NCBI RefSeq assembly: GCF_053078305.1
Contig: NZ_CP166879.1
Length of the DNA: 64,000 nucleotides
Strand: one strand, 5' to 3'
Positions 33,811 to 59,663 of the stretch are shown piece by piece. Positions within the stretch are counted from its first letter, which is position 1, and each line of letters opens with the position of its first letter. A program made the position numbers and the translations under genes. The notes beneath the pieces were generated by a model. It did not search any database and was not told where the DNA came from. It was given only the letters and a program-made list of their open reading frames with translations.

Positions 33811-33887
33811 TGGCGCGTTGTACTGGATTCGAACCAGTGACCGATTGCTTAGAAGGCAATTGCTCTGTCCGACTGAGCTAACAACGC
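33811..33887 (-). tRNA. argO: tRNA-Arg (anticodon UCU), argO-like
   Basis: Cloverleaf folded by hand: acceptor GCGTTGT/ACAACGC, anticodon loop CTTCTAA, T-loop GGTTCGAATCC, CCA end. Confidence 0.75.
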
Positions 33888-33900
33888 ATGATGCTGATAA

Positions 33901-33977
33901 TGGACCGCCATCGGGGACTTGAACCCCGCGCAGCCAGCTTCGAAGGCTGGCGCTCTGTCCCGATGAGCTAATGGCGG
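33901..33977 (-). tRNA. argN: tRNA-Arg (anticodon UCG as read), argN-like
   Basis: Acceptor CCGCCAT/ATGGCGG, anticodon loop CTTCGAA, T-arm CGGGGTTCAAGTCCCCG. Confidence 0.65.
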
Positions 33978-33986
33978 TATGTGATA

Positions 33987-34062
33987 TGGTGGCCCTTGCT
34001 GGATTTGAACCAGCGACCTGGCGATTATGAGTCGCTCGCTCTCACCACTGAGCTAAAGGGCC
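33987..34062 (-). tRNA. ileZ: tRNA with CAU anticodon, ileX-like (tRNA-Ile2 via lysidine, or Met)
   Basis: GGCCCTTTAGCTCAGTGGTGAGAGC...CTCATAA...GGTTCAAATCC...CCA; close to E. coli ileX. Confidence 0.75.
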
Positions 34063-44611: not shown

Positions 44612-45010
44612 GTGGTGATGATCTTTGTAAAACGCCTTCAGCAGGTGTTGCAGGAATTGAATATAAACCAGTCAGAGCTGGGAAGACGTCTTGGTGTAAA
44701 ACCCCAATCCGTGCAAGGTTGGTTGAAAGGCGTGATGCCAAGAATGGATAAACTGGAAAAATTAGCAGAGCTCTCACAACATCCCGTCCATTGGTTCTTT
44801 ATGGAAGAAGAAACTCTCGGCGATAAAATGGCTGTATCCAGTAATGACAACCAACCGCAACTTACAGAACAACAACGAAAAATCATATCGCTTTTAGATG
44901 AGTTACCTCAAAGCGACGCAGAGCAGATCATTCGTGATATGGAGCAAAAACGCGATTTCTATAAACGGAAACTTGAAGAGTTACTGCGGCAGAAAAACAA
45001 AACTGCCTGA
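44612..45010 (+). CDS. Immunity repressor, DicA/RacR-like (HTH only, no peptidase domain)
   Basis: ...LNINQSELGRRLGVKPQSVQGWLKG... HTH; C-terminal ...LTEQQRKIISLLDELPQSDAEQII... resembles DicA. Confidence 0.65.
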   Translation: MVMIFVKRLQQVLQELNINQSELGRRLGVKPQSVQGWLKGVMPRMDKLEKLAELSQHPVHWFFMEEETLGDKMAVSSNDNQPQLTEQQRKIISLLDELPQSDAEQIIRDMEQKRDFYKRKLEELLRQKNKTA

Positions 45011-45056: not shown

Positions 45057-45416
45057 TTATAATCCAACCAGGCTTTCCAGGGGGATACCAAATTGATTAT
45101 GAAGACGGCGAATCATTGGTAACGTAAGGCTTCTGGTACCATTCAACACCTCATAAACCCGATTTTTTTTCCCAATTGCGGGTTCCAAATCTTTCACAGT
45201 CAGCCCCTGCTGTTCCATGCGAAATCTTATAGCTTCAATTGGGGATGGTGGCTCAATGGGATAATGTTTTTTTTCATATTCCTCTATTAGCAAACACATC
45301 ACCTCAAAAAAATCCCCCTCAGGCGTGTCAATTTCGGGCTCATTGTCGAACATGGGTTCAACAGCACGCAACGCGGCTTCATAATCTTGCTCTGTACGAA
45401 TAGGTTTGATGTTCAT
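45057..45416 (-). CDS. higA: HigA-like antitoxin (C-terminal HTH)
   Basis: ...GLTVKDLEPAIGKKNRVYEVLNGTRSLTLPMIRRLHNQFGIPLESL...; downstream of and adjacent to toxin. Confidence 0.65.
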   Translation of the reverse strand: MNIKPIRTEQDYEAALRAVEPMFDNEPEIDTPEGDFFEVMCLLIEEYEKKHYPIEPPSPIEAIRFRMEQQGLTVKDLEPAIGKKNRVYEVLNGTRSLTLPMIRRLHNQFGIPLESLVGL

Positions 45417-45418
45417 GC

Positions 45419-45721
45419 TTACTCCAGTTCGATGGTATCAGCATCAATAGCATCGTATTCCTTGTGGTTTCCGATGAATTTAACAAATACCCATCCTCGC
45501 TGATACGCAATTGCAACAATTAAACGGTAATGATTACCTTTTATGTTGAATACCACGCGCCGGTTTTTCAATATACTGGCCGTTCGGTATTGTGCCTTAA
45601 TGTCTGCTGGGCTTTTCCAGTCAGCTTTTGCCGCCTCATCCACCCATGCCCTTAGCGGTTGTTCTGCATCAGGATTCTCCGCCCAAAAATCCCTGAGTGT
45701 TTTAACTGAGATAATCTTCAT
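45419..45721 (-). CDS. higB: HigB-like toxin (RelE/ParE fold); start trimmed to ATG at 45721
   Basis: MKIISVKTLRDFWAENPDAEQ...NIKGNHYRLIVAIAYQRGWVFVKFIGNHKEYD... Confidence 0.65.
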   Translation of the reverse strand: MKIISVKTLRDFWAENPDAEQPLRAWVDEAAKADWKSPADIKAQYRTASILKNRRVVFNIKGNHYRLIVAIAYQRGWVFVKFIGNHKEYDAIDADTIELE

Positions 45722-45995
45722 AACTGTATAGTAGTCCCATTTTGGGACTGATGCAACAGCTCGCAATTACAAATTTAATAATAAACATGTTGACCAGTTA
45801 AATTTTAATTTGTAAATTGTATCCATAAACCCACCCCGCCCCACAGAACGCAGGGCAATACTTCGAGTTACCCGGCAGTGGTCAGGGGTTAAGTAGCCAG
45901 CCTGAGGCGTATGAACATGACGGCGGGGATTACGTTTAACTATGCAGCAGGTTTTTTGTTCCGCTACCCCGGCGTTAAGGGGAAATGAGGTCAAC

Positions 45996-46475: not shown

Positions 46476-46933
46476 AAAGTGAATTTTGTGATGCGGTGAA
46501 TGCGGCTAAGCGCACGCGGAACAGTTAAAACCGTAAAGTGGTCTTTTACGGGGCGTAACGGGCATACTTCTGTATTCCGGCGTTAATTGTTAACTGGTTA
46601 ACGTCACCTGGAGGCACCAGGCACTGCATCGACAAAGTTCACTTCGGTGATGAAAGGTAAGAGAAAATGTTGAATGTAGCTATTGAAAACCAGAACGGGT
46701 GGAATTATAGTGCACCTGCACCTCATAAAGCGGGTGCCGGGATTGCTACCCCGATGTTCATCATGGCGCATAACCGCGCTCAGGCGTTTTTTTTATGCGT
46801 AATGCACAGCCACATTCAGATTATGGTGGGGCGTGCAGGGCAGCCGCAAGGCTGGCCGGGTTCCATGATGACCGGTTGTAGCAACCCTGTGCGTCTCACC
46901 ACCCATGAGATTGCTACCTCCGGTGGTGAGTTA

Positions 46934-47518
46934 ATGAAATTCATCATGGAGGCTGCCATCATGGCTACTATCCCTGCCCTTTCTCACCCTGAAATTACTA
47001 TCGCCAATGGGCGTGCTGTTACATCCTCTTTAGCTGTTGCCGAGTATTTCCGGAAACCACACAAAGATGTACTGGCAAAAATTTCACGTCTAGACTGTTC
47101 AGCAGAATTCACTGAGCGAAATTTTTCGCCCAGTGAATATACCGACTCAACCGGGCGCAAACTCCCTATGTACCAAATCACCAAAAACGGCTTCGTTTTC
47201 CTGGTGATGGGCTTCACCGGCAAAAAAGCCGCTGCATTTAAAGAAGCCTACATCGCTGAGTTCGATCGCATGGAGAAAGAACTGCGCCAGAATAACGCCC
47301 CGTCTCCCGACAAAATGATTCACGGGGACGGACGTACCCTGGTTATCCGTCTCGACGAACACGGCAATATCAAATTCACTGAAACCGTTCCTGATGGTGC
47401 AATGGTCTGCACCCTGGATACCTTCCAGTTTTATCTGGAGAAACAAGGCTGGACTCTTGTAAACCGGAGCGCAATTAAAAATATGACTGTGGAGCAATTA
47501 CTAAAAATTCATTGTTGA
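46934..47518 (+). CDS. rha: Rha-family phage regulatory protein (start uncertain: 46934 or 46961)
   Basis: ...ITIANGRAVTSSLAVAEYFRKPHKDVLAKISRL...PMYQITKNGFVFLVMGFTGKKAAAFKEAYI... Rha domain. Confidence 0.65.
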   Translation: MKFIMEAAIMATIPALSHPEITIANGRAVTSSLAVAEYFRKPHKDVLAKISRLDCSAEFTERNFSPSEYTDSTGRKLPMYQITKNGFVFLVMGFTGKKAAAFKEAYIAEFDRMEKELRQNNAPSPDKMIHGDGRTLVIRLDEHGNIKFTETVPDGAMVCTLDTFQFYLEKQGWTLVNRSAIKNMTVEQLLKIHC

Positions 47519-47528
47519 GGACGCGATA

Positions 47529-47717
47529 ATGGAAACGTTATTACCAAACGTTAATACGTCTGAAGGGTGTTTTGATATTGGTATTCTGCTCAGTAACCGG
47601 GAGTTTACTGAAGATGCCATTAAGATGAGAAAATATGAGCCTTATCTTCTCAATGATAATTCCATACTCTCCAGAATTGCCCTTCTTAAACTTGGTATTT
47701 TCGGAGGGCAGCAGTGA
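47529..47717 (+). CDS. dicB: DicB-like cell-division inhibitor
   Basis: METLLPNVNTSEGCFDIGILLSNREFTEDAIKMRK... matches DicB N-terminus. Confidence 0.7.
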   Translation: METLLPNVNTSEGCFDIGILLSNREFTEDAIKMRKYEPYLLNDNSILSRIALLKLGIFGGQQ

Positions 47718-47902
47718 CTTCTGCATTTGCACTGGTGATGACGGTTTTTCTTATAACGGGTGAGCCACAGAATGTGATTACCGGAATTTATGCCAGTAAA
47801 GAATCATGCCTCCGTGCAAGAGACGAGCAAAAAATTTCTGGCGAATGCCTCCCGTTAAAAAAAGTATCGCTGTACCTGAATAACGAAATACCGGCTGGAT
47901 AA
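47714..47902 (+). CDS. ydfD: YdfD-like small membrane (lysis) protein; GTG start
   Basis: (M)TSAFALVMTVFLITGEP...EQKISGECLPLKKV...NEIPAG resembles Qin YdfD. Confidence 0.6.
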   Translation: MTSAFALVMTVFLITGEPQNVITGIYASKESCLRARDEQKISGECLPLKKVSLYLNNEIPAG

Positions 47903-47994
47903 TCCACCAGCCATATTAACGCCATACCCGTTGATTAAGCATGCCAGCAATGGCAGGGGTTCGTACAACCTTAAAATAGTTATGAGGTTTATCC

Positions 47995-50433
47995 ATGAGC
48001 ACTGATAAAGAAGAATTTTCGCTATATTGCGAAGCAAAAAATGACAAGGTCAGAAAACGCCTTGGGATTAAAGGAGGTTTTTACTGGACTACAGCAAAAA
48101 AATTATCTGTTGCCATCTCACGGTGCGTTGTTGCAATGGACGAGGCAGGCTACGACGCTGATGATTTCAAAAAACCTGTCCGCGTCCATTTCCCCGTTGT
48201 GAATGACCTTCCACCGGAAGGCGTGTTTGATACCGAATTCTGCAACCGCTATGAAAAAGGCGGGGAAGATGGCATCACAATGATATTTATAGCGCCTTCC
48301 CCCTCAGTTCAGGACAAACCAGCCAGCACTGACAATACCAACGTCAATGGCGAAGACATGGCTGAGATTGAGGATAATATGCTCCTGCCGATTTCCGGTC
48401 AGGAACTGCCCATTCGCTGGCTTGCGCAACATGGCAGCGAAAAACCGGTAACGCACGTTTCACGGGAAGAACTTCAGGCATTACATATCGCACGAGCTGA
48501 AGAACTGCCGGCTGTTACTGCCCTGGCTATTTCCCACAACACAAAGCTGCTCGACCCGCTGGAGATTCGCGACCTTCATAAACTGGTACGCGACACAGAC
48601 AAAGTTTTCCCTAATCCCGTTAATTCCAGTCTGGGGTTAATGACTGCTTTTTTCGAAGCATACCTGGACGCTGACTATACCGATCGAGGTCTGCTGACAA
48701 AAGAGTGGATGAAAGGAAATCGTGTTTCTCGCATCACCCGCACGGCTTCCGGTGCAAATGCCGGTGGCGGAAATAAAACCGATCGTAATCCTGACTTAGT
48801 ACACACCCTCGATACTCTGGATGTGGAGGCTGCAGCAGCCACACTTCCGATGGATTTTAATATTTATGAAATACCCGTGAGCGTTTATCGTCGCGCAAAA
48901 GAAATCGTCCTGAAAAAAGAAAGTCCGTTCAGGGAATGGTCCGCAGCACTTCGCGCAACCCCTGGTATCCTGGACTATTCCCGCGCAGCTATTTTTGCAC
49001 TTATCCGGAGCGCCCACCCTGAGTTTTATCACTACCCGGGACGCCTTCAGGGGTATATCAATGCCAACCTGACAGAAACTGATCACGAGAATCCCACAGC
49101 TGAAACGCTCATGGCTGCCCGGCATACACCGGAAAAAGATATCCTGGAAGAAATTAACGGCGGACTGGCTGCTGAGTGCAAAACAGAAGAAGAAAAAAAT
49201 GATGAAGAAAACCCGCAACCATCTGGCGCAATGGCAGATGAACAGGCAACGGCTGAAACAATGGCAGCGGATACAGTTGAACATCATCAGGACCCGCAGC
49301 CGCTGGATGACAAGTCACAGGTAAAAGTTACTGCTGAAGAAGTAAATAAAATTATGGAGGCAGCAGACATCAGTCGACCAGATGCCGACAAATTGCTTGC
49401 CGCTTCTCGTGGTGAGTTTGTTGAAGGGATTAGCGACCCGAATGATTCGAAATGGGTTAAGGGGATTGAAACCTGCGATTCTGTGAACCAGAACCAGCAA
49501 GAAACGGAACAGAACGGTCAGAAAGCGGAACAAAACAGCCCAAATGCGTTACAAAACGAGCCAGAAACGAAACAACCTGAACCAGTAGTGCAACAGGAAG
49601 AGGAAAAAGTTTGTACCGCATGCAATCAGACTGGTGGTGGTAACTGCCCTGATTGTGGCGCAGTGATGGGGGACGCAACCTACCAGGAGACATTCAACGA
49701 AGAAAGCCAGGATGAAGCCCGGGAAAAAGATCCGGAGGAAATGGAAAGTGCCGGACTCCCGAACAAGGAGTGCACCGAAGGCGATCAACATGCCAATGGC
49801 AATAATGAAACAGGCGAGACAGCAAATCCCTTAATTAAGGTGAACGGTCATCGTGAAATCACATCCACCAGCAGGTTATGGCACCATCTGATGATTGACC
49901 TTGAAACAATGGGCAAAAATCCTGACGCACCAATAGCCTCAATAGGCGCTGTATTTTTCGATCCACAAACCGGAGAGCAGGGGCCTGAATTCAGCAAAAT
50001 AATTGATATGGGTACATGTGGCGGCACTGTAGACATAAGCACCATCGAATGGTGGCTTCAACGCTCTGGCGAAGCCCGTGCCGCCATTTTAGCTGATCGA
50101 ATACCGCTTGATGATGCGCTTTTACAATTACGGGAATTTATAGACGAAAACTCCGGTGAGTTTTTTGTTCAGGTCTGGGGAAATGGAGCCAACTTCGACA
50201 ACGTGATTTTACGCCGTTCATATGAACGGCAGGAGATCCCCTGCCCGTGGCGTTACACCAATGATCGTGATGTAAGAACGATTGTTGCCCTGGGGCTGGT
50301 GATGGATTTCGATGCTCGAAGTGTCATCACATTTGAGGGTGAACGCCATAATGCCCTGCACGATGCGCGTTACCAGGCAAAATACGTTTCAGCTATCTGG
50401 CAAAAACTGTTCCCGAATCAGGCTGATTTTTAA
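47995..50433 (+). CDS. Large early-left protein: RecE-like N-terminal region + acidic linker + Cys4 zinc ribbon + C-terminal DEDDh 3'-5' exonuclease domain
   Basis: C-terminus MIDLETMG ... WGNGANFDN ... [10 protein letters not shown] (Exo I-III motifs); [16 protein letters not shown]; N-terminal blocks recalled as RecE-like. Confidence 0.6.
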
Positions 50434-50499: not shown

Positions 50500-50751
50500 A
50501 TGTACGAATTAACTCTATCGCCAGCAGAAATTCAAGAGATCACGAGATACGAACGGTATACAAAACAGCAACAACAGTTAAGGTTGCACGGTATCCCATT
50601 TGTACCCGGTCCTAAAAACGAACCAATAGTTCTTCGCAGTGATGTCCCGCGCGGACTGACTGCGATACCGAAAGTATCTGAACTGGTTTCTGCTGACCCC
50701 GATTTTGAGGCGCTGAACAATGGGAAGACCAAGAAAAAACAAAAAAGATAA
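50500..50751 (+). CDS. xis: Putative excisionase
   Basis: Small basic protein immediately upstream of and overlapping int. Confidence 0.5.
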   Translation: MYELTLSPAEIQEITRYERYTKQQQQLRLHGIPFVPGPKNEPIVLRSDVPRGLTAIPKVSELVSADPDFEALNNGKTKKKQKR

Positions 50752-51739
50752 TGCACTACCGCCACGTGTTAGATCGAATGGTTACAGTTACGTATGGAAA
50801 CCCGAAGGAAGCACAAAAACTATAGGGCTAGGAAGAGTGCGGGAAACCAGCATAGCTAAAGTCTGGCAGAATTATGAACTGGAAAAAGCAAAACGCCACA
50901 ACATAATGACCGTCGCTAAATTATGGCACATGTTTATGGATTCCCCCGCATTTACAGAACTGGCCCCCAGAACCCAAAAAGATTATCGGCAACATCAGAG
51001 GGCGTTACTGGCAGTCTTCGGAAAAGTACTGGCTGATAATGTAAAAATTGAGCAGGTAAGAATTTTCATGGATAAACGGGGGATTGAGAGCAAGACCCAG
51101 GCAAACCATGAACTGGCAAGTCTCAGTCGTGTATACGGGTGGGGATATGAGCGTGGATATGTGAAGAATAACCCATGCAAAGGAGTCAGGAAATTTACGC
51201 TTAAAGCCCGCACTGTTTACATCACAGATGAACAGTATGCGGCGATATATGCGGAAGCAATACCACAGTTACGCATTGCAATGGAGATATCCTATCTTTG
51301 TGCGGCAAGACTCGGTGATGTGCTCGAGCTGAAATGGCAGGATATTATGGATAAAGGAATCTACATTGAGCAAAACAAGACCGGCACCAAACAAATCAAG
51401 GAATGGTCTCCACGATTACGAACCGCGATCCAGTTAGCCAGAAATGTATCTTCAGGCACATGTGAATATGTGATCAACACAACCAAGGGCGGGAAGGTCA
51501 TAGCTAAAACGCTAAACAACTGGTGGAACCAGGCTAAACACGCAGCCGAGAAAAAATCCGGCGTCCCGTTTGGGTGCAATTTCCATGACATAAAAGCCAA
51601 AGGAATATCAGATTACGAAGGAAGCAGTCGCGACAAACAGATTTTCAGTGGACATAAAACAGAAAATCAGGTGTTGATTTATGATCGTAAAACAAAAATC
51701 ACGCCGACACTGGATTTGCCACTTGTGGTCAGCAAGTAG
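50720..51739 (+). CDS. int: Tyrosine integrase
   Basis: 339 aa; catalytic R (AARLGDV), H-x-x-K and terminal HKTENQVLIYDRK (Tyr) motifs; adjacent to attR. Confidence 0.85.
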   Translation: MGRPRKNKKDNALPPRVRSNGYSYVWKPEGSTKTIGLGRVRETSIAKVWQNYELEKAKRHNIMTVAKLWHMFMDSPAFTELAPRTQKDYRQHQRALLAVFGKVLADNVKIEQVRIFMDKRGIESKTQANHELASLSRVYGWGYERGYVKNNPCKGVRKFTLKARTVYITDEQYAAIYAEAIPQLRIAMEISYLCAARLGDVLELKWQDIMDKGIYIEQNKTGTKQIKEWSPRLRTAIQLARNVSSGTCEYVINTTKGGKVIAKTLNNWWNQAKHAAEKKSGVPFGCNFHDIKAKGISDYEGSSRDKQIFSGHKTENQVLIYDRKTKITPTLDLPLVVSK

Positions 51740-51946: not shown

Positions 51947-51985
51947 ATAAGGGGTTAGCTAAATGCTAACCCCTTTTTCTTTTGC
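51947..51985 (+). terminator. Rho-independent terminator (likely the original serT terminator)
   Basis: aggggttagc-taaat-gctaacccct perfect hairpin + T-tract. Confidence 0.6.
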
Positions 51986-52146: not shown

Positions 52147-52806
52147 ATGGATCGTATTGTTAGTTCTTCACATGACCGTACATCACTGCTTAGCACCCAT
52201 AAGGTGCTGCGTAATACCTATTTTCTGCTGAGCCTGACGCTGGCCTTTTCGGCGATTACCGCAACTGCCAGTACGGTGCTGATGCTGCCATCTCCGGGTC
52301 TGATTCTGACGCTGGTGGGTATGTATGGTTTGATGTTCCTGACCTATAAAACGGCGAATAAGCCGACCGGGATTATCTCCGCATTCGCCTTTACCGGTTT
52401 TCTGGGTTATATCCTCGGACCAATTCTGAACACCTATCTGTCTGCCGGAATGGGTGACGTAATCGCTATGGCACTGGGCGGAACGGCGTTAGTGTTCTTC
52501 TGCTGCTCTGCATATGTGCTGACCACCCGCAAAGATATGTCGTTCCTCGGCGGTATGCTGATGGCGGGTATTGTGGTGGTGCTGATTGGTATGGTTGCTA
52601 ATATCTTCCTGCAACTGCCTGCTCTGCATCTGGCGATCAGCGCGGTCTTCATTTTGATCTCCTCTGGCGCTATTTTGTTTGAAACCAGCAACATCATTCA
52701 TGGCGGTGAAACGAACTATATTCGTGCCACGGTTAGCCTGTATGTTTCGCTGTACAACATCTTCGTCAGCCTGCTGAGCATTCTGGGCTTCGCCAGCCGC
52801 GATTAA
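52147..52806 (+). CDS. yccA: Inner-membrane protein YccA (BAX inhibitor-1 family, FtsH modulator)
   Basis: [34 protein letters not shown]... Confidence 0.9.
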
Positions 52807-52896
52807 TCTCACCCGCTAACACTTTCATAGCCTCGCTTTATGCGGGGCTTTGTTTTTTGTTACACTGCCGGCAGTCTGATTAAGGTAGTAATAATT

Positions 52897-53226
52897 ATGC
52901 TGATCTTCGAAGGTAAAGAGATAGAAACGGATACCGAAGGCTATCTCAAAGAAAGCAGCCAGTGGAGTGAGCCGCTGGCAGTGGTGATTGCAGAGAACGA
53001 AGGGATTTCGCTGTCGCCAGAACACTGGGAAGTGGTGCGTTTTGTGCGTGATTTCTATCTGGAATTTAATACGTCTCCGGCGATTCGTATGCTGGTAAAA
53101 GCGATGGCGAATAAATTTGGCGAAGAAAAAGGTAACAGCCGCTATTTATACCGACTGTTTCCGAAAGGTCCGGCTAAGCAAGCCACCAAAATTGCTGGCC
53201 TGCCAAAACCGGTAAAATGTATTTAA
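52897..53226 (+). CDS. tusE: Sulfurtransferase TusE
   Basis: [36 protein letters not shown]... Confidence 0.9.
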
Positions 53227-53501
53227 CGGATACGAAAATCGGTTAATTCACCCGAGGGATGATGCGGCTCGCTGAGCACCCGTTCTACACGCGCAGAACG
53301 CGGGCCGCCACTCTTTAACCACTGCATTAATTTTTCTACCTGCCCTTCTTCACCGCAAGCAACCACTTCCACGCTGCCATCGTCAAGATTTTTGGCGTAC
53401 CCGCTTAACCCGAGTTTTTTCGCTTCGTACTGCGTGGTATAGCGAAATCCTACGCCCTGAACTCGCCCGTAAACCCAGGCAATTATGCAGACTTTCGACA
53501 T
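53223..53501 (-). CDS. yccX: Acylphosphatase
   Basis: [32 protein letters not shown]...; start trimmed to ATG at 53501. Confidence 0.9.
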
Positions 53502-53595
53502 TGCTGCTCTCCTTATCCTTAATGGACGCGTTGCAAATCCATGGAAAACTCCGGACAATGACGCCCATTTCTTTGCATCGACAGAAAAGTAAATT

Positions 53596-54786
53596 ATGAG
53601 TGTACGTTTAGTGTTAGCCAAAGGGCGCGAAAAATCATTACTTCGTCGCCATCCGTGGGTCTTTTCCGGGGCCGTTGCCCGCATGGAAGGTAAAGCCAGC
53701 CTCGGTGAAACCATCGATATTGTTGATCATCAGGGAAAATGGTTAGCACGCGGCGCTTATTCGCCAGCTTCGCAAATCCGGGCGCGCGTCTGGACGTTTG
53801 ACCCGTCTGAGTCTATCGACATTGCTTTTTTTTCCCGCCGTTTGCAACAAGCACAAAAATGGCGTGACTGGCTGGCGCAAAAAGATGGCCTCGACAGCTA
53901 TCGTTTAATCGCCGGTGAATCTGATGGCCTGCCGGGTATTACTATCGATCGTTTCGGTAATTTTCTGGTGCTGCAACTGCTGAGTGCTGGGGCAGAGTAT
54001 CAGCGCGCGGCATTAATTAGTGCCCTGCAAACGCTGTACCCGGAATGTGCGATTTACGATCGCAGCGATGTTGCGGTACGTAAAAAAGAAGGGATGGAGC
54101 TGACCCAGGGCCCCGTCACCGGCGAGTTGCCGCCTGCCCTGCTGCCGATTGAAGAACACGGCATGAAGCTGCTGGTGGATATTCAGCACGGACACAAAAC
54201 GGGCTACTACCTGGACCAGCGTGATAGTCGCCTGGCTACCCGCCGCTACGTTGAAAATAAACGCGTACTGAACTGTTTCTCCTATACCGGTGGTTTCGCC
54301 GTATCGGCACTGATGGGCGGTTGCAGCCAGGTTGTCAGCGTTGATACCTCCCAGGAAGCGCTGGATATTGCACGGCAGAACGTTGAGCTGAACAAACTGG
54401 ATCTGAGCAAGGCGGAGTTTGTCCGTGATGATGTCTTTAAATTGCTGCGTACTTATCGCGATCGCGGTGAAAAATTTGACGTTATCGTGATGGACCCGCC
54501 GAAGTTTGTTGAGAATAAAAGCCAGTTGATGGGCGCGTGTCGTGGCTATAAAGACATCAACATGCTGGCGATTCAGTTGCTGAATGAAGGCGGTATTCTC
54601 CTGACTTTCTCCTGTTCCGGTCTGATGACCAGCGATTTATTTCAGAAAATCATCGCGGATGCCGCAATTGATGCCGGCCGTGATGTACAATTTATAGAGC
54701 AGTTCCGTCAGGCAGCCGATCATCCGGTGATCGCTACCTACCCGGAAGGGCTATATCTGAAAGGGTTTGCCTGTCGCGTCATGTAA
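53596..54786 (+). CDS. rlmI: 23S rRNA m5C1962 methyltransferase RlmI
   Basis: [27 protein letters not shown]...; 396 aa. Confidence 0.9.
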
Positions 54787-55161
<375 letters not shown>

Positions 55162-55205
55162 TCCCTGAACAAATCCCCGGAAGGTTTTTGCCTTCCGGGG
55201 ATTTT

Positions 55206-55619
55206 TTATTTGGCCAGGCCCAGGCGAGGGATCTCAATAGCCGGGCAGCGATCCATCACCACATTCAACCCGGCATCCCGTGCCAGTACTGCCGCTTGCT
55301 CATTAATCACCCCCAGTTGCATCCAGAGGGTTTTCGCGCCAATGGCAATAGCTTCCTGTGCCACGCCCCACGCCGCTTCTGAATTACGGAAAACATCGAC
55401 CATATCGACCTTTTCCGGAACGTCTGCCAGCGTGCCGTACCCCTGCTGGCCCAGCAGCGTTTTGCCGGCAACTTTTGGCGAAACCGGAATGACGTGATAC
55501 CCCTGGTCGAGTAGATATTTCATCACGCGATAGCTGGGACGATCGGGTTTGTCGCTTGCCCCCACCAGCGCAATGGTGTGAGTGGACGTTAAAATGCCTG
55601 CAATATCGGTTTCTTTCAT
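55206..55619 (-). CDS. yccU: CoA-binding protein YccU
   Basis: [41 protein letters not shown]... Confidence 0.9.
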
Positions 55620-55791
55620 TATTTCCTCCAGACTGTTTCACAAAGTGTACGACAAAGCCGACATGCCAACCATGCAGCTAATACGAATGAATGAGAGCAA
55701 AAGCGGGAAATATGTCTATATGTTAGTAAGTATGATTAAAGAAAAATTTTGACACATTATTATTCGGGCGGTCTTTTGACAGGAGCTACCT

Positions 55792-56454
55792 ATGAAAACC
55801 GGCATCGTGACCACCTTGATTGCATTATGTTTGCCGGTATCCGTTTTTGCCACCACGCTGCGGCTTTCAACCGATGTCGATCTTCTGGTACTCGACGGCA
55901 AGAAGGTCTCCAGCTCTCTGCTGCGCGGTGCGGACAGCATTGAACTGGATAATGGACCGCATCAGTTAGTGTTTCGCGTTGAGAAGACGATTCATCTTTC
56001 CAATAGTGAAGAACGGCTGTATATCTCCCCACCGCTGGTGGTCAGTTTTAATACCCAGCTCATCAACCAGGTCAATTTTCGCCTGCCTCGCCTGGAGAAT
56101 GAGCGGGAAGCTAACCATTTTGATGCCGCGCCGCGCCTTGAATTGTTGGATGGCGATGCGACGCCGATTCCGGTAAAGCTGGATATTCTCGCCATTACCT
56201 CAACGGCAAAAACGATTGATTATGAGGTCGAGGTTGAACGCTATAACAAATCCGCGAAACGCGCTTCACTACCGCAATTTGCCACGATGATGGCAGATGA
56301 CAGTACGCTGCTTTCGGGTGTTTCCGAGCTGGATGCTATTCCACCGCAGTCTCAGGTGCTCACAGAACAACGGCTGAAGTATTGGTTTAAACTGGCTGAC
56401 CCACAAACGCGAAATACTTTCCTGCAGTGGGCGGAAAAACAACCATCTTCCTGA
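55792..56454 (+). CDS. yccT: UPF0319 protein YccT
   Basis: [34 protein letters not shown]... Confidence 0.85.
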
Positions 56455-56549
56455 GATTTTTGTGCCTGTGCGCAGGCTTTTTCGGTCTTTAACTTGCAGC
56501 GATAAGTGCTTACAGTAATCTGTAGGAAAGTTAACTACGGATGTACATT

Positions 56550-57008
56550 ATGGAACTGACGACTCGCACTTTACCTGCGCGGAAACATATTGCGCTGGTG
56601 GCACACGATCACTGCAAACAAATGCTGATGAGCTGGGTGGAACGACATCAACCGTTACTGGAACAACACGTACTGTATGCAACAGGCACTACCGGTAACT
56701 TAATTTCTCGCGCGACCGGCATGAACGTCAACGCGATGTTGAGTGGCCCAATGGGGGGTGACCAGCAGGTTGGCGCATTGATCTCAGAAGGGAAAATTGA
56801 TGTATTGATTTTCTTCTGGGATCCACTAAATGCCGTGCCGCACGATCCTGACGTGAAAGCCTTGCTGCGTCTGGCGACGGTATGGAACATTCCGGTCGCC
56901 ACCAACGTGGCAACGGCAGACTTCATTATCCAGTCGCCGCATTTCAACGACGCGGTCGATATTCTGATCCCCGATTATCAGCGTTATCTCGCGGACCGTC
57001 TGAAGTAA
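56550..57008 (+). CDS. mgsA: Methylglyoxal synthase
   Basis: [34 protein letters not shown]... Confidence 0.9.
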
Positions 57009-57039
57009 TATTGCACAGGTGGCAAACGCCACCTGTTTC

Positions 57040-59094
57040 TTACGGTTTTCTCGCCACCGGCACATCCAGATTTTTCAGTATTTCCACAAAGGGAGAGGGA
57101 TTCTCTTTGTTAAACAGTGCCCATACCCGATGGCGTGCCCGGGTCAGCGCCACGTACATTAACCGCCGTTCTTCAGCGTCCGGGAAATCCTCAACCGGTG
57201 GCAGTAGCGCCTCTTCCATAATCGACTCCCGCGCCGCAGCCGGAAAACCATCACTTCCCTCCTGCAAGCCAACGATGATGACGTAATCCGCCTGTTGCCC
57301 TTTGCTGGCATGAATGGTCATAAAGTCGATTTGCAACTTCGGCCAGCGTGTTGCCGCTTTTTCCAGGCTGGCAGGCCTCATGTGATGGTAACGCGCCAGG
57401 ATCAGAATGCGCTCTTCCGGTTTGGCATAACCAGAGAGCTTATCCAGCAAAGCGTCAAGATGGCTCTCATCCAATAACGTGACGGCTTTTTTGTCTCCAT
57501 TGGTTAAGCTGTTTAGCGGCTTTTTCAGCTGGCCTGGGTTCTGCTGAATAAACCGGTTTGCCACCTCACCGATACGACTGTTAAAACGGTAAGTCGTGTC
57601 TAAATCGCAGCGATCGCCTTCACCAAAGTTTTCATGGAAAGCGGTGGTGAGCGACATTTGCGCACCGCTGAATCGGTAAATCGCCTGCCAGTCATCACCA
57701 ACGGCGAACAACGTCGTCTGACTGTTTTGCTTGCGTAATGCCGCTAACAACGCTGCCCGCTGCGGCGAGATATCCTGAAATTCATCAACCAGAATATGCT
57801 TCCACGGGCTGATAAAGCGACCTTTCTCCAGAATCACAATCGCCTGGTGAATAAGGCCCGAAAAATCGACAGCGTTTTCTGCCTTCAGCGCACCTTTCCA
57901 GGCTTTTAATAACGGAGCCATCAACTTGATACGTTTACTGAACAGATCGCGAATCTCTTCGGGTGCACTGGCAATCATTTCTGCCTGTGCACCACCGTGC
58001 ATCCGCATCAGACTTACCCAACGATCGAGGCGTGAGGCAAGACGACGCTGTAATTTTTCATCATCCCAGAAGTTACCTTCTGGCACTGACCACTGCATTT
58101 CTTCCGTCAGCCATTGCCGCCAGCCCTTCGCCTGCGCTTTCTTTTCGCTGCATTGCTTGCGCCACTCAGCAATAAAGAGTTCATGACGGGCAGCGGTATC
58201 ATTTTCCAGTTTGCTGACTATCGGAACTTTTTTGCTGCCCTGCTGAATAATATGCAGCGCCAGCGCATGAAACGTGCGTGCGGTAATGTCTTCGGTATGT
58301 AGCCGTTCGCGAATACGCTCGTCCATCTCTTCAGCGGCTTTGCGACCAAACGCCAGCAATAAAATTTGCTCAGGGGACGCTTCACCACGCGCCAGCAACC
58401 AGCCTGCACGGGCCACCAGCACCGACGTTTTTCCGCTTCCTGCACCTGCCAGCACTAACAGAGAATGCTCGCCATTAACGACTGCCCGGGCCTGCGCCGG
58501 ATTCAGCGGTGAAGACTCGACCTGGCGGAAAAAATCCGCATACTCGGTAAGCATGGCTTCGGTATACGCCTGGTTATGCTGCAACCGAGCGCTTTCAATA
58601 TCTTTCAACCAGGCCTGACATTTACGCCACGCCTCACGGCAGTTATCGAATTCTTCCAGTCGGTTAACCGGCAACGGCAACGCCGACAAAGCCTGGCGGA
58701 TTTGTTGCTGAACGCCAGAGGTTTGCTCACGCGTCAGCCATTTATTTTCTCCAGTGCGCGTGGCAATCAAATCCAGTTGCTGGCGTAAAACACCAGACGC
58801 AATTTCGCTCATCTCGCCACTCCACCGCCGCCAGTGAGCATCAAGATGATGGTAAAAACGCTGCGTCTCGCCCCATTCGGTGCCGTGCAAACGCACCACT
58901 TTTTCGTCCGGCAGTACAAATTCCAGCTCGCCCCATACCAGACCGCGCTTACAGTGAATCGCCAGTAATTGATTGAAAGGAATAAGGTATTCGTGGCGAT
59001 CGCCGGAGACTTTAATACCGGCATTGAGGATCACCGCCCGATCGTAAGGGTGCTGTGCCAGACGTTTTCCAAGCGTTGTCGCTTTCAGTTCCAT
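57040..59094 (-). CDS. helD: DNA helicase IV
   Basis: MELKATTLGKRLAQHPYDRAVILNAGIK...; Walker A LAGAGSGKTSVL; start trimmed to ATG at 59094. Confidence 0.9.
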   Translation of the reverse strand: MELKATTLGKRLAQHPYDRAVILNAGIKVSGDRHEYLIPFNQLLAIHCKRGLVWGELEFVLPDEKVVRLHGTEWGETQRFYHHLDAHWRRWSGEMSEIASGVLRQQLDLIATRTGENKWLTREQTSGVQQQIRQALSALPLPVNRLEEFDNCREAWRKCQAWLKDIESARLQHNQAYTEAMLTEYADFFRQVESSPLNPAQARAVVNGEHSLLVLAGAGSGKTSVLVARAGWLLARGEASPEQILLLAFGRKAAEEMDERIRERLHTEDITARTFHALALHIIQQGSKKVPIVSKLENDTAARHELFIAEWRKQCSEKKAQAKGWRQWLTEEMQWSVPEGNFWDDEKLQRRLASRLDRWVSLMRMHGGAQAEMIASAPEEIRDLFSKRIKLMAPLLKAWKGALKAENAVDFSGLIHQAIVILEKGRFISPWKHILVDEFQDISPQRAALLAALRKQNSQTTLFAVGDDWQAIYRFSGAQMSLTTAFHENFGEGDRCDLDTTYRFNSRIGEVANRFIQQNPGQLKKPLNSLTNGDKKAVTLLDESHLDALLDKLSGYAKPEERILILARYHHMRPASLEKAATRWPKLQIDFMTIHASKGQQADYVIIVGLQEGSDGFPAAARESIMEEALLPPVEDFPDAEERRLMYVALTRARHRVWALFNKENPSPFVEILKNLDVPVARKP

Positions 59095-59216
59095 GACTCT
59101 GTAGATCCACACGAAATTATTTCTTATCAGTGTAACCGTCAGAGAAAACGTGCTCCAGCCCAAAAAAACGTTACAATTGCCGCCCATTACTGAAAACCAC
59201 AGTAAAGCGAGGTTTT

Positions 59217-59663
59217 ATGCGTACCGTTTTGAACATTCTGAACTTTGTGCTTGGCGGATTTGCCACCACTCTGGGCTGGCTGTTGGCGACTCTGGTCAGT
59301 ATTGTGCTGATTTTTACCTTACCGCTGACACGATCCTGCTGGGAGATCACTAAACTGTCTCTGGTGCCTTATGGCAATGAAGCTATTCATGTCGATGAAC
59401 TGAACCCGGCTGGCAAAAATGTGCTGCTGAATACTGGCGGTACGGTATTGAATATTTTCTGGCTGATTTTCTTTGGCTGGTGGTTATGCCTGATGCACAT
59501 TGCAACGGGCATCGCACAATGTATTTCCATCATTGGCATTCCTGTCGGTATTGCGAACTTTAAAATTGCCGCTATTGCACTATGGCCGGTTGGTCGTCGC
59601 GTGGTATCGGTAGAAACAGCGCAAGCTGCGCGTGAAGCCAATGCACGTCGTCGTTTTGAATAA
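59217..59663 (+). CDS. yccF: Inner membrane protein YccF
   Basis: MRTVLNILNFVLGGFATTLGWLLATLVSIVLIF... Confidence 0.9.
   Translation: MRTVLNILNFVLGGFATTLGWLLATLVSIVLIFTLPLTRSCWEITKLSLVPYGNEAIHVDELNPAGKNVLLNTGGTVLNIFWLIFFGWWLCLMHIATGIAQCISIIGIPVGIANFKIAAIALWPVGRRVVSVETAQAAREANARRRFE

Follow-up and report, generated by a model that had tools for sequence, protein, structure and literature searches.

RecE and RecT, specified by the Rac prophage of Escherichia coli K-12, are the workhorses of recombineering. RecE (exonuclease VIII) carries a PD-(D/E)XK 5’-3’ nuclease domain at its C-terminus (residues ~592–866), and to our knowledge the function of its N-terminal ~600 amino acids (aa), two thirds of the protein, has been unknown for decades. 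Here we analyze an exonuclease gene found in a stretch of 64,000 nucleotides (nt) of contig NZ_CP166879.1 (NCBI RefSeq assembly GCF_053078305.1), hereafter the window. The gene (47995–50433, + strand, ATG start) stands third from the end in the early-left operon of a lambdoid prophage (about 50 kb), where it precedes xis and int, and its 812-aa product joins a RecE-type N-terminal scaffold to a DEDDh 3’-5’ exonuclease head. By sequence comparison, the position of the RecE PD-(D/E)XK nuclease is taken here by a DEDDh domain of the DexA/EcD type, complete and with its five catalytic residues all present. The gene is not a new entity, being common and already named “exonuclease” by NCBI; relative to the characterized RecE/RecT, DexA and EcD proteins it is a domain-swapped variant.

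The described relatives of the head come from several sources. DexA of phage T4 is a DNA exonuclease of solved structure (Kang et al., Nucleic Acids Research 2025, PMC12153337) and, according to that report, has a role in double-strand-break processing during intron homing. Its E. coli homolog EcD (“HREX”) degrades the 5-hydroxymethylcytosine (5hmC) DNA of T4, spares unmodified double-stranded DNA and, when supplied from a plasmid, protects E. coli against T4 (PMC12153337). Prophage DEDDh exonucleases that resemble ISG20 and carry variable auxiliary domains (“TONDO”) are described in a 2026 preprint as defending against MS2 and Qbeta (PMC13344964). Lastly, a survey of lambdoid phages revealed that those lacking a Rec module have an excess of Chi sites and benefit from RecBCD, and recorded sporadic DnaQ-type nuclease genes near int, outside recognizable Rec modules (Zheng, Casjens, Davidson, Amundsen and Smith, Genome Research 2025, PMC12315714). 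A fusion to the RecE scaffold, and a strict either/or relationship with recT, are not described in that survey. Nor did our literature search find a description of the RecE-scaffold/DEDDh fusion, of the shared scaffold or of the either/or linkage to recT.

Domain organization of the exonuclease

The initial annotation, made from the sequence alone, had proposed that a RecE-like N-terminal region is combined with a DEDDh domain, rather than with the PD-(D/E)XK fold of true RecE, and database comparisons bear this out. A Pfam scan divides the open reading frame (ORF) into two families, PF06630 (Exonuc_VIII; aa 51–189, 48145–48561, +; E 4e-34) and PF16473 (Rv2179c-like/DexA-like DEDDh; aa 630–802, 49882–50400, +; E 1.7e-62), the latter match spanning the full model (positions 1–177 of 177). 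In BLASTP against K-12 Rac RecE, aa 50–614 align with RecE residues 42–591 at 56% identity, and no homology past RecE residue 591 was detected by this program, so that the alignment ends just before the nuclease domain. The NCBIfam RecE model (NF007259) tells the same story: aa 1–614 match profile positions 1–602 of 877, with a score (879 bits) under the curated cutoff of 1269. The RecE C-terminus (Pfam DUF3799) had no tblastn match anywhere in the window. A ribosome-binding site, GAGG (47984–47987, +), can be read from the sequence 7 nt upstream of the ATG.

The window protein thus shares with Rac RecE the PF06630 region, the helical domains, the zinc ribbon and the acidic linkers, as well as the same late slot in the early-left operon, 5’ of xis and int. 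It differs in having a DEDDh 3’-5’ domain where RecE has its 5’-3’ nuclease, and in that no recT, ralR or rcbA follows it.

The RecE-type scaffold

An AlphaFold2 model of aa 1–620, built upon an alignment of 40 diverse homologs, resolves the scaffold into three confidently predicted domains, for none of which a solved structural relative was found. These are an alpha/beta domain (aa 1–100; 47995–48294, +), a helical domain (aa 113–250; 48331–48744, +; predicted local distance difference test [pLDDT] about 85–95) and a further helical domain (aa 257–395; 48763–49179, +; pLDDT about 90–98). The second of these is 72–92% identical to its counterparts in other RecE-type proteins, and the third is also found in the YdfE/Tritos-type variant described below. 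In spite of the family name, the PF06630 stretch is the non-catalytic N-terminal region of RecE.

The remainder of the scaffold consists of smaller elements. A first acidic linker, disordered in the model (aa 399–444; 49189–49326, +; 28% D+E), leads to a small helical motif (aa 445–484; 49327–49446, +) which includes ...GISDPND and which the model and the alignments show to be kept in RecE and in both DEDDh variants; its sole Pfam match is a weak one (HYPK-UBA, E 0.03). Then follow a four-cysteine zinc ribbon (CTAC-N7-CPDC, aa 540–554; 49612–49656, +), also kept in K-12 RecE, and a second acidic linker (aa 561–625; 49675–49869, +) inside which RecE homology stops (aa 614, equivalent to RecE 591). 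Aspartate and glutamate together account for 25–28% of the residues in both linkers (aa 399–445 and 561–625). The initial annotation had noted an acidic linker and a ribbon ahead of the nuclease domain. Both exist, but the ribbon spacing is CxxC-N7-CxxC rather than N9 and, since both lie in the stretch that aligns with K-12 RecE, they are on this comparison parts of the conserved RecE N-terminal region and not features of the fusion junction.

The DEDDh head

The three motifs of the head are DLETMG (aa 635–640), WGNGANFDN (aa 728–736) and a third at aa 785–794. They supply the residues D635/E637 (Exo I, D-x-E), D735 (Exo II) and H785/D790 (Exo III, H-x4-D), and these columns are invariant or nearly so in an alignment of representatives at about 40–80% identity. 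An AlphaFold2 model of aa 613–812 was calculated from a 17-sequence alignment (mean pLDDT 84; predicted TM-score 0.82). When the Protein Data Bank (PDB) was searched with this model using Foldseek, 144 matches at E ≤ 0.001 were obtained; the 50 best were all DEDDh exonucleases, headed by the chains of T4 DexA (E 1e-10, TM 0.72) and followed by RNase T, Cap18, Orn and other enzymes of this kind. The modelled C-terminal fold is therefore that of a nuclease. Because the structural matches are led by DexA and the catalytic residues are all present, we regard the head, as modelled, as a genuine exonuclease of the DnaQ-like type whose active site is intact. PADLOC returned only a weak, generic DEDDh match (E 2e-5, to the domain alone) and assigned the protein to no defence system.

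DexA (8KEL/8KEN) was also the sole relative with a nuclease fold that a sequence search of the PDB revealed at E ≤ 1 (E 2e-5). It is the best solved relative by both sequence and fold, shares the DEDDh residues and the Pfam family with the window protein, and is likewise the product of a phage early gene. The identity is only about 23%, however, and DexA is a stand-alone protein of 227 aa with extra loops and no RecE scaffold, in which W152 aligns with Thr755 of the window protein. The founder of PF16473, Mycobacterium tuberculosis Rv2179c, is an RNase. The sequence search of the PDB did not retrieve it at E ≤ 1, which places it farther away than DexA.

The family name raises the question of whether the protein might be an exoribonuclease acting on the 3’ ends of host or phage RNA, in the manner of Rv2179c or the ISG20-like TONDO proteins. 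NCBI often uses the name “3’-5’ exoribonuclease” for it, the fold also resembles those of RNase T and Orn, and prophage DEDDh exonucleases are reported to defend against the phages MS2 and Qbeta (PMC13344964). Against this, the nearest relatives by sequence and structure (DexA, and EcD at 41% identity) are DNases, and the scaffold derives from a DNA enzyme. We consider an RNA substrate very unlikely.

The sequence of EcD used here is a candidate which we inferred from the 17-nt gene-specific part of the published forward primer by scanning IMG/VR, and not one taken from an accession. It specifies 189 aa, starts with MIDTET and has alanine at position 78, as stated in PMC12153337. The candidate is 41% identical to aa 633–810 of the window protein and is, like it, a compact DEDDh domain borne on a prophage; it differs in being a stand-alone protein in a P2-like prophage, and in having Trp and Ala at the positions of DexA W152 and D90, where the window protein has Thr755 and Asp707. 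The candidate gene (L024:6401–6991, –) lies in the early region of this P2-like prophage beside a DNA methyltransferase gene, with a gpA-type replication nickase nearby. If the candidate is correct, the published “bacterial” anti-T4 EcD is a phage early gene of the same family as the window exonuclease.

Could the window protein, like EcD, be a superinfection-exclusion nuclease of the HREX type, selective for the 5hmC DNA of incoming T-even phages? The 41% identity to a protein that degrades T4 DNA and protects from a plasmid (PMC12153337) speaks for this, as do the other host-modifying genes around dicB in the operon; furthermore, an isrK/C4 promoter region lies 5’ of the gene and could permit some expression in the lysogen. 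The residues point elsewhere. The tryptophan at DexA position 152 is reported to be needed for 5hmC cleavage (PMC12153337), and this column varies (T/Y/C/W/H) across the subfamily; D707 is kept at the position of DexA D90, whose loss marks the dimer-only defensive form (PMC12153337). Of the other DexA residues, S87 corresponds to P704, and D169 to D771 in the HMMER alignment, in a loop where the alignment with EcD is ambiguous. Because Thr755 replaces W152 and D707 is retained, the window exonuclease is not predicted to be 5hmC-specific by the rules set out in PMC12153337. In addition, its gene belongs to a repressor-controlled early-left operon, and EcD itself, a phage gene of a P2-like early region, was tested by overexpression only. 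We therefore hold this explanation to be distinctly unlikely.

Distribution and modularity

Hundreds of E. coli contigs encode exactly this 812-aa protein, annotated as “exonuclease” or “3’-5’ exoribonuclease”. Among 5426 complete E. coli genomes the gene is covered to at least 80% in 1220, and 3237 contain the DEDDh head when this is counted by itself, with up to seven copies per genome. It is also carried by the viable phages Tritos, mEp460 and vB_EcoS-640R1, in the same dicB-ydfD-exonuclease-xis-int order.

Since a first protein search with the C-terminal domain yielded only proteins of ≤ 371 aa and was uninformative as to architecture, a search of representatives (clusters at 50% identity) was used instead. 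It gave 10,916 matches, the best 150 of which were classed by BLASTP against the separate modules. Among these 150, about 20 representatives combine RecE-type scaffold modules with a DEDDh head, about 16 combine them with a PD-(D/E)XK head and 64 consist of the DEDDh domain only.

The N-terminus is exchanged as well. In the 823-aa exonuclease of Tritos and mEp460 the region equivalent to aa ~443–812 (helical motif, ribbon and head) is about 80% identical to that of the window protein, and the dicB-ydfD-exonuclease-xis-int synteny is the same, but the RecE-type start is replaced by an unrelated, YdfE-type module. The Qin pseudogene ydfE of K-12 (L014:4079–4999), cut by IS2, corresponds at 99% identity to the first 256 aa of this Tritos-type exonuclease (L004:3641–6109). 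We had considered ydfE as a possible N-terminal remnant of the window gene; it shows no similarity to it and matches the alternative N-terminal module.

A pair of genes in Klebsiella grimontii, coding for a 423-aa Exonuc_VIII protein and a 239-aa Rv2179c-like protein, looked like a two-gene version of the fusion, but the two are separated by an in-frame TGG-to-TAG change (L010:5880–6060) at the conserved Trp of ...DPNDxKWVKG..., present in three independent samples. The 180–183-aa “stand-alone” DEDDh proteins of E. coli are mostly contig-end fragments or frameshifted copies of the long gene. Broken copies are seen in E. coli as well: the annotation divides one (L001:12001–14439) into a partial RecE pseudogene and a distinct “exonuclease”, another (L006:737–3127) is in three pieces, and many database entries for a partial “3’-5’ exoribonuclease” (180–370 aa) are such copies or truncations at contig ends.

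A decaying mosaic remnant without selected function might be expected to leave just such traces as the split and three-piece copies, the K. grimontii stop codon and the IS2-cut ydfE. We give this explanation hardly any credence: viable phages and hundreds of genomes carry intact copies, the residues of catalysis are (near-)invariant among proteins at about 40–80% identity, and the synteny is kept at five integration sites.

Linkage to recT

The neighbourhoods of 14 DEDDh-headed loci were examined, namely the window and L001, L003, L004, L005, L010, L013, L045, L047, L049, L050, L056, L057 and L058, which span about 38–100% identity and at least five integration sites. All 14 run straight into xis/int and none has RecT or another annealing protein. 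By contrast, each of the four PD-(D/E)XK-headed loci (K-12 Rac, L051, L052 and L053) has a PF03837 recT gene immediately 3’. The swapped unit is therefore the RecE nuclease together with RecT on the one hand and the DEDDh head alone on the other, while the scaffold is constant. As recT accompanies only the RecE nuclease head and the scaffold is common to both, these comparisons imply that whatever the scaffold does would be independent of RecT and of the polarity of resection.

Recombination partners and Chi sites

The initial annotation had stated that no annealing protein gene is adjacent and that xis follows directly, and three lines of evidence agree with it. Six-frame tblastn of the window with RecT, Bet, Erf, lambda Exo, Gam, Abc1 and Abc2 gave no match (best E 0.68); no annealing protein was found in PHROG scans of the 20 ORFs between 36.8 and 51.7 kb; and none is listed by the Prokaryotic Genome Annotation Pipeline (PGAP) for the prophage of strain FHI_NMBU_10, which occupies this site and is 97% identical. 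The PHROG scans of the early-left ORFs did not reveal GamL or MuGam either, neither of which was searched for by sequence.

Chi sites (GCTGGTGG) are abundant. The window has 19 compared with 2.6 expected; 12 of these are in the prophage (25875–49872; about 2 expected in about 50 kb) and seven in the flank (52311–59483). Those of the prophage are confined to the part from the late-gene junction to int, one of them (49865–49872, –) within the exonuclease gene, while there are none in the structural-gene half (2–25.8 kb). Nine of the 12 are on the minus strand, the equivalent of the lambda top strand; this orientation, and with it any bias for RecBCD entry from the right cos end, was read from strand correspondence to lambda. 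In phage Tritos nine of the 11 Chi sites have the corresponding orientation, and its annotation lists no annealing protein. Because neither an annealing protein nor a RecBCD inhibitor was found and Chi sites are many and biased in orientation, the prophage conforms to the “no Rec module – high Chi” (LLS) class of lambdoid phages (PMC12315714), which it resembles in having no annealing protein, Gam or Abc2 and in being Chi-rich with an orientation bias.

These data bear upon the idea that the protein is a functional replacement for RecE, in which the scaffold would bring the nuclease to double-strand ends and 3’-5’ resection or trimming would feed host RecA/RecBCD/RecFOR or an annealing protein of another prophage acting in trans. 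Both its place in the genome and its ~600-aa scaffold are shared with RecE, and full-length RecE, but not the nuclease domain alone, boosts linear-linear recombination (reviewed in PMC11611040), so that the scaffold matters for end joining. DexA, moreover, participates in double-strand-break processing during intron homing (PMC12153337), and many E. coli genomes harbour several prophages and as many as seven DEDDh heads. On the other side, the polarity is opposite to that which makes 3’ tails, and DnaQ-type exonucleases usually inhibit recombination (PMC12315714). An annealing protein is adjacent in 0 of 14 DEDDh loci as opposed to 4 of 4 with the RecE head, and a Chi-rich phage without a RecBCD inhibitor leaves host RecBCD already able to resect. 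On balance we think a replacement of this kind possible but rather unlikely. The proposal in the initial annotation of a role other than Red/RecET-type recombination gains comparative support from this recT pattern and from the membership of the Chi-rich class without a Rec module. The examples that it gave, anti-defence and host DNA processing, are conjectural, the experiments to date being those on the relatives DexA and EcD.

The prophage and its early-left operon

The prophage lies between serT and yccA. The host gene serT (tRNA-Ser(tga), 1860–1947, +) stands at one end and yccA (52147) at the other, and in the gap between int and yccA, near the prophage-host junction, there is a bidirectional terminator-like hairpin with a perfect 11-bp stem (51949–51975). 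A cluster of tRNA genes (Arg-tct, Arg-tcg and Met-cat; 33811–34062, –) is present on the prophage 5’ of the late region.

Reading towards int, one meets a CI-like repressor gene (44612–45010), a HigB/HigA-type toxin-antitoxin pair that separates it from the early-left genes and is encoded on the opposite strand (45057–45766, –), DUF1391, an isrK/C4-RNA element with a 283-aa Rha/antirepressor ORF (46667–47518, +), dicB, a ydfD-like gene, the exonuclease, xis and int. The dicB gene (47529–47717, +; phrog_1251), which specifies a cell-division inhibitor, is so named by PGAP in near-identical prophages; the ydfD-like DUF1482 gene (47714–47902, +) is directly 5’ of the exonuclease gene. Directly 3’ of it, in the slot that recT would fill in a RecET module, is the excisionase gene xis (50500–50751, +), and the tyrosine integrase gene int (50720–51739, +) forms the end of the prophage adjoining yccA.

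Two RNAs were recognized by Rfam inside the 5’ part of the Rha ORF: the Hfq-binding small RNA isrK (46718–46794, +; 58 bits) and a C4 antisense RNA (46819–46906, +; 78 bits). The best sigma-70-like site of the region (46683–46711) is just 5’ of this element. The arrangement looks like a c4/isrK-antirepressor switch of the P1/Gifsy type, and the true start of the antirepressor is probably near 46934; the switch may control transcription of dicB, the ydfD-like gene and the exonuclease gene. In general, the promoter and terminator scan found sites at the level of chance (10 compared with 12.6 expected), and a possible promoter of the exonuclease gene itself (47950–47977, a 9/12 site) was dismissed since the scan was no richer than chance.

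Predicted role

With moderate confidence we favour the view that the protein is a stand-alone early 3’-5’ DNA exonuclease and not a recombinase of the RecET type, its role in the phage being a prediction. It would be made after induction or infection along with DicB and the YdfD-like protein, and would remove nucleotides from free 3’-OH ends by two-metal catalysis. Its substrate is most likely DNA, because its two nearest characterized relatives, T4 DexA and E. coli EcD, are DNases. It would not be the resection half of a RecET/Red-type recombinase, since the polarity is wrong for making 3’ tails and there is neither an annealing protein nor a RecBCD inhibitor. Recombination-dependent growth of this Chi-rich phage would probably be left to host RecBCD/RecA, with the exonuclease serving as an accessory DNA-end nuclease that carries out DexA-like trimming or degradation of 3’-ended DNA, and the scaffold presumably giving the head the same targeting or assembly function as it gives RecE. 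The gene is maintained, being intact in viable phages and hundreds of genomes.

Several considerations weigh against a stand-alone DNA exonuclease. Its substrate (DNA or RNA), oligomeric state and timing of expression are all inferred, and the Pfam family of the head is named after the exoribonuclease Rv2179c. The recombination-nuclease slot and the RecE scaffold argue for a DNA-end role related to recombination, and T4 DexA itself has a part in double-strand-break processing during intron homing (PMC12153337). Annealing proteins of other E. coli prophages could act in trans. The isrK/C4 element and the promoter-like site at 46683–46711 lie upstream in the same orientation as the gene, so that expression in the lysogen may occur. 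Finally, the enrichment in Chi is a correlation only.

A broader proposal is that the N-terminal region of RecE is a platform for targeting or assembly, complete in itself, which phages fit with one or another nuclease head of opposite polarity, the DEDDh form being a one-protein, annealing-independent module that cooperates with host RecBCD and Chi. At cos or at breaks this module might then trim or edit 3’ ends, or it might destroy those of rival DNA. We judge this unlikely as it stands; if true, it would add a third strategy to those of having one’s own Rec module and having none.

Significance

The scaffold is used about as often with a 3’-5’ DEDDh head as with the RecE nuclease head, and the pair of heads offers an experimental handle on the function of the RecE N-terminal region. 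The value of the finding lies also in the question of how a 3’-5’ exonuclease serves phages that have no Rec module. The anti-T4 protein EcD, if correctly identified, is put into context as a phage early gene of the same family. About 60% of complete E. coli genomes have the head, often more than once, and so do many prophages of Shiga toxin-producing E. coli. Because the gene is so widespread in E. coli and in these prophages, its activity, be it DNA-end trimming, phage exclusion or interference with recombination, could affect prophage induction, recombination between prophages and the outcome of phage therapy.

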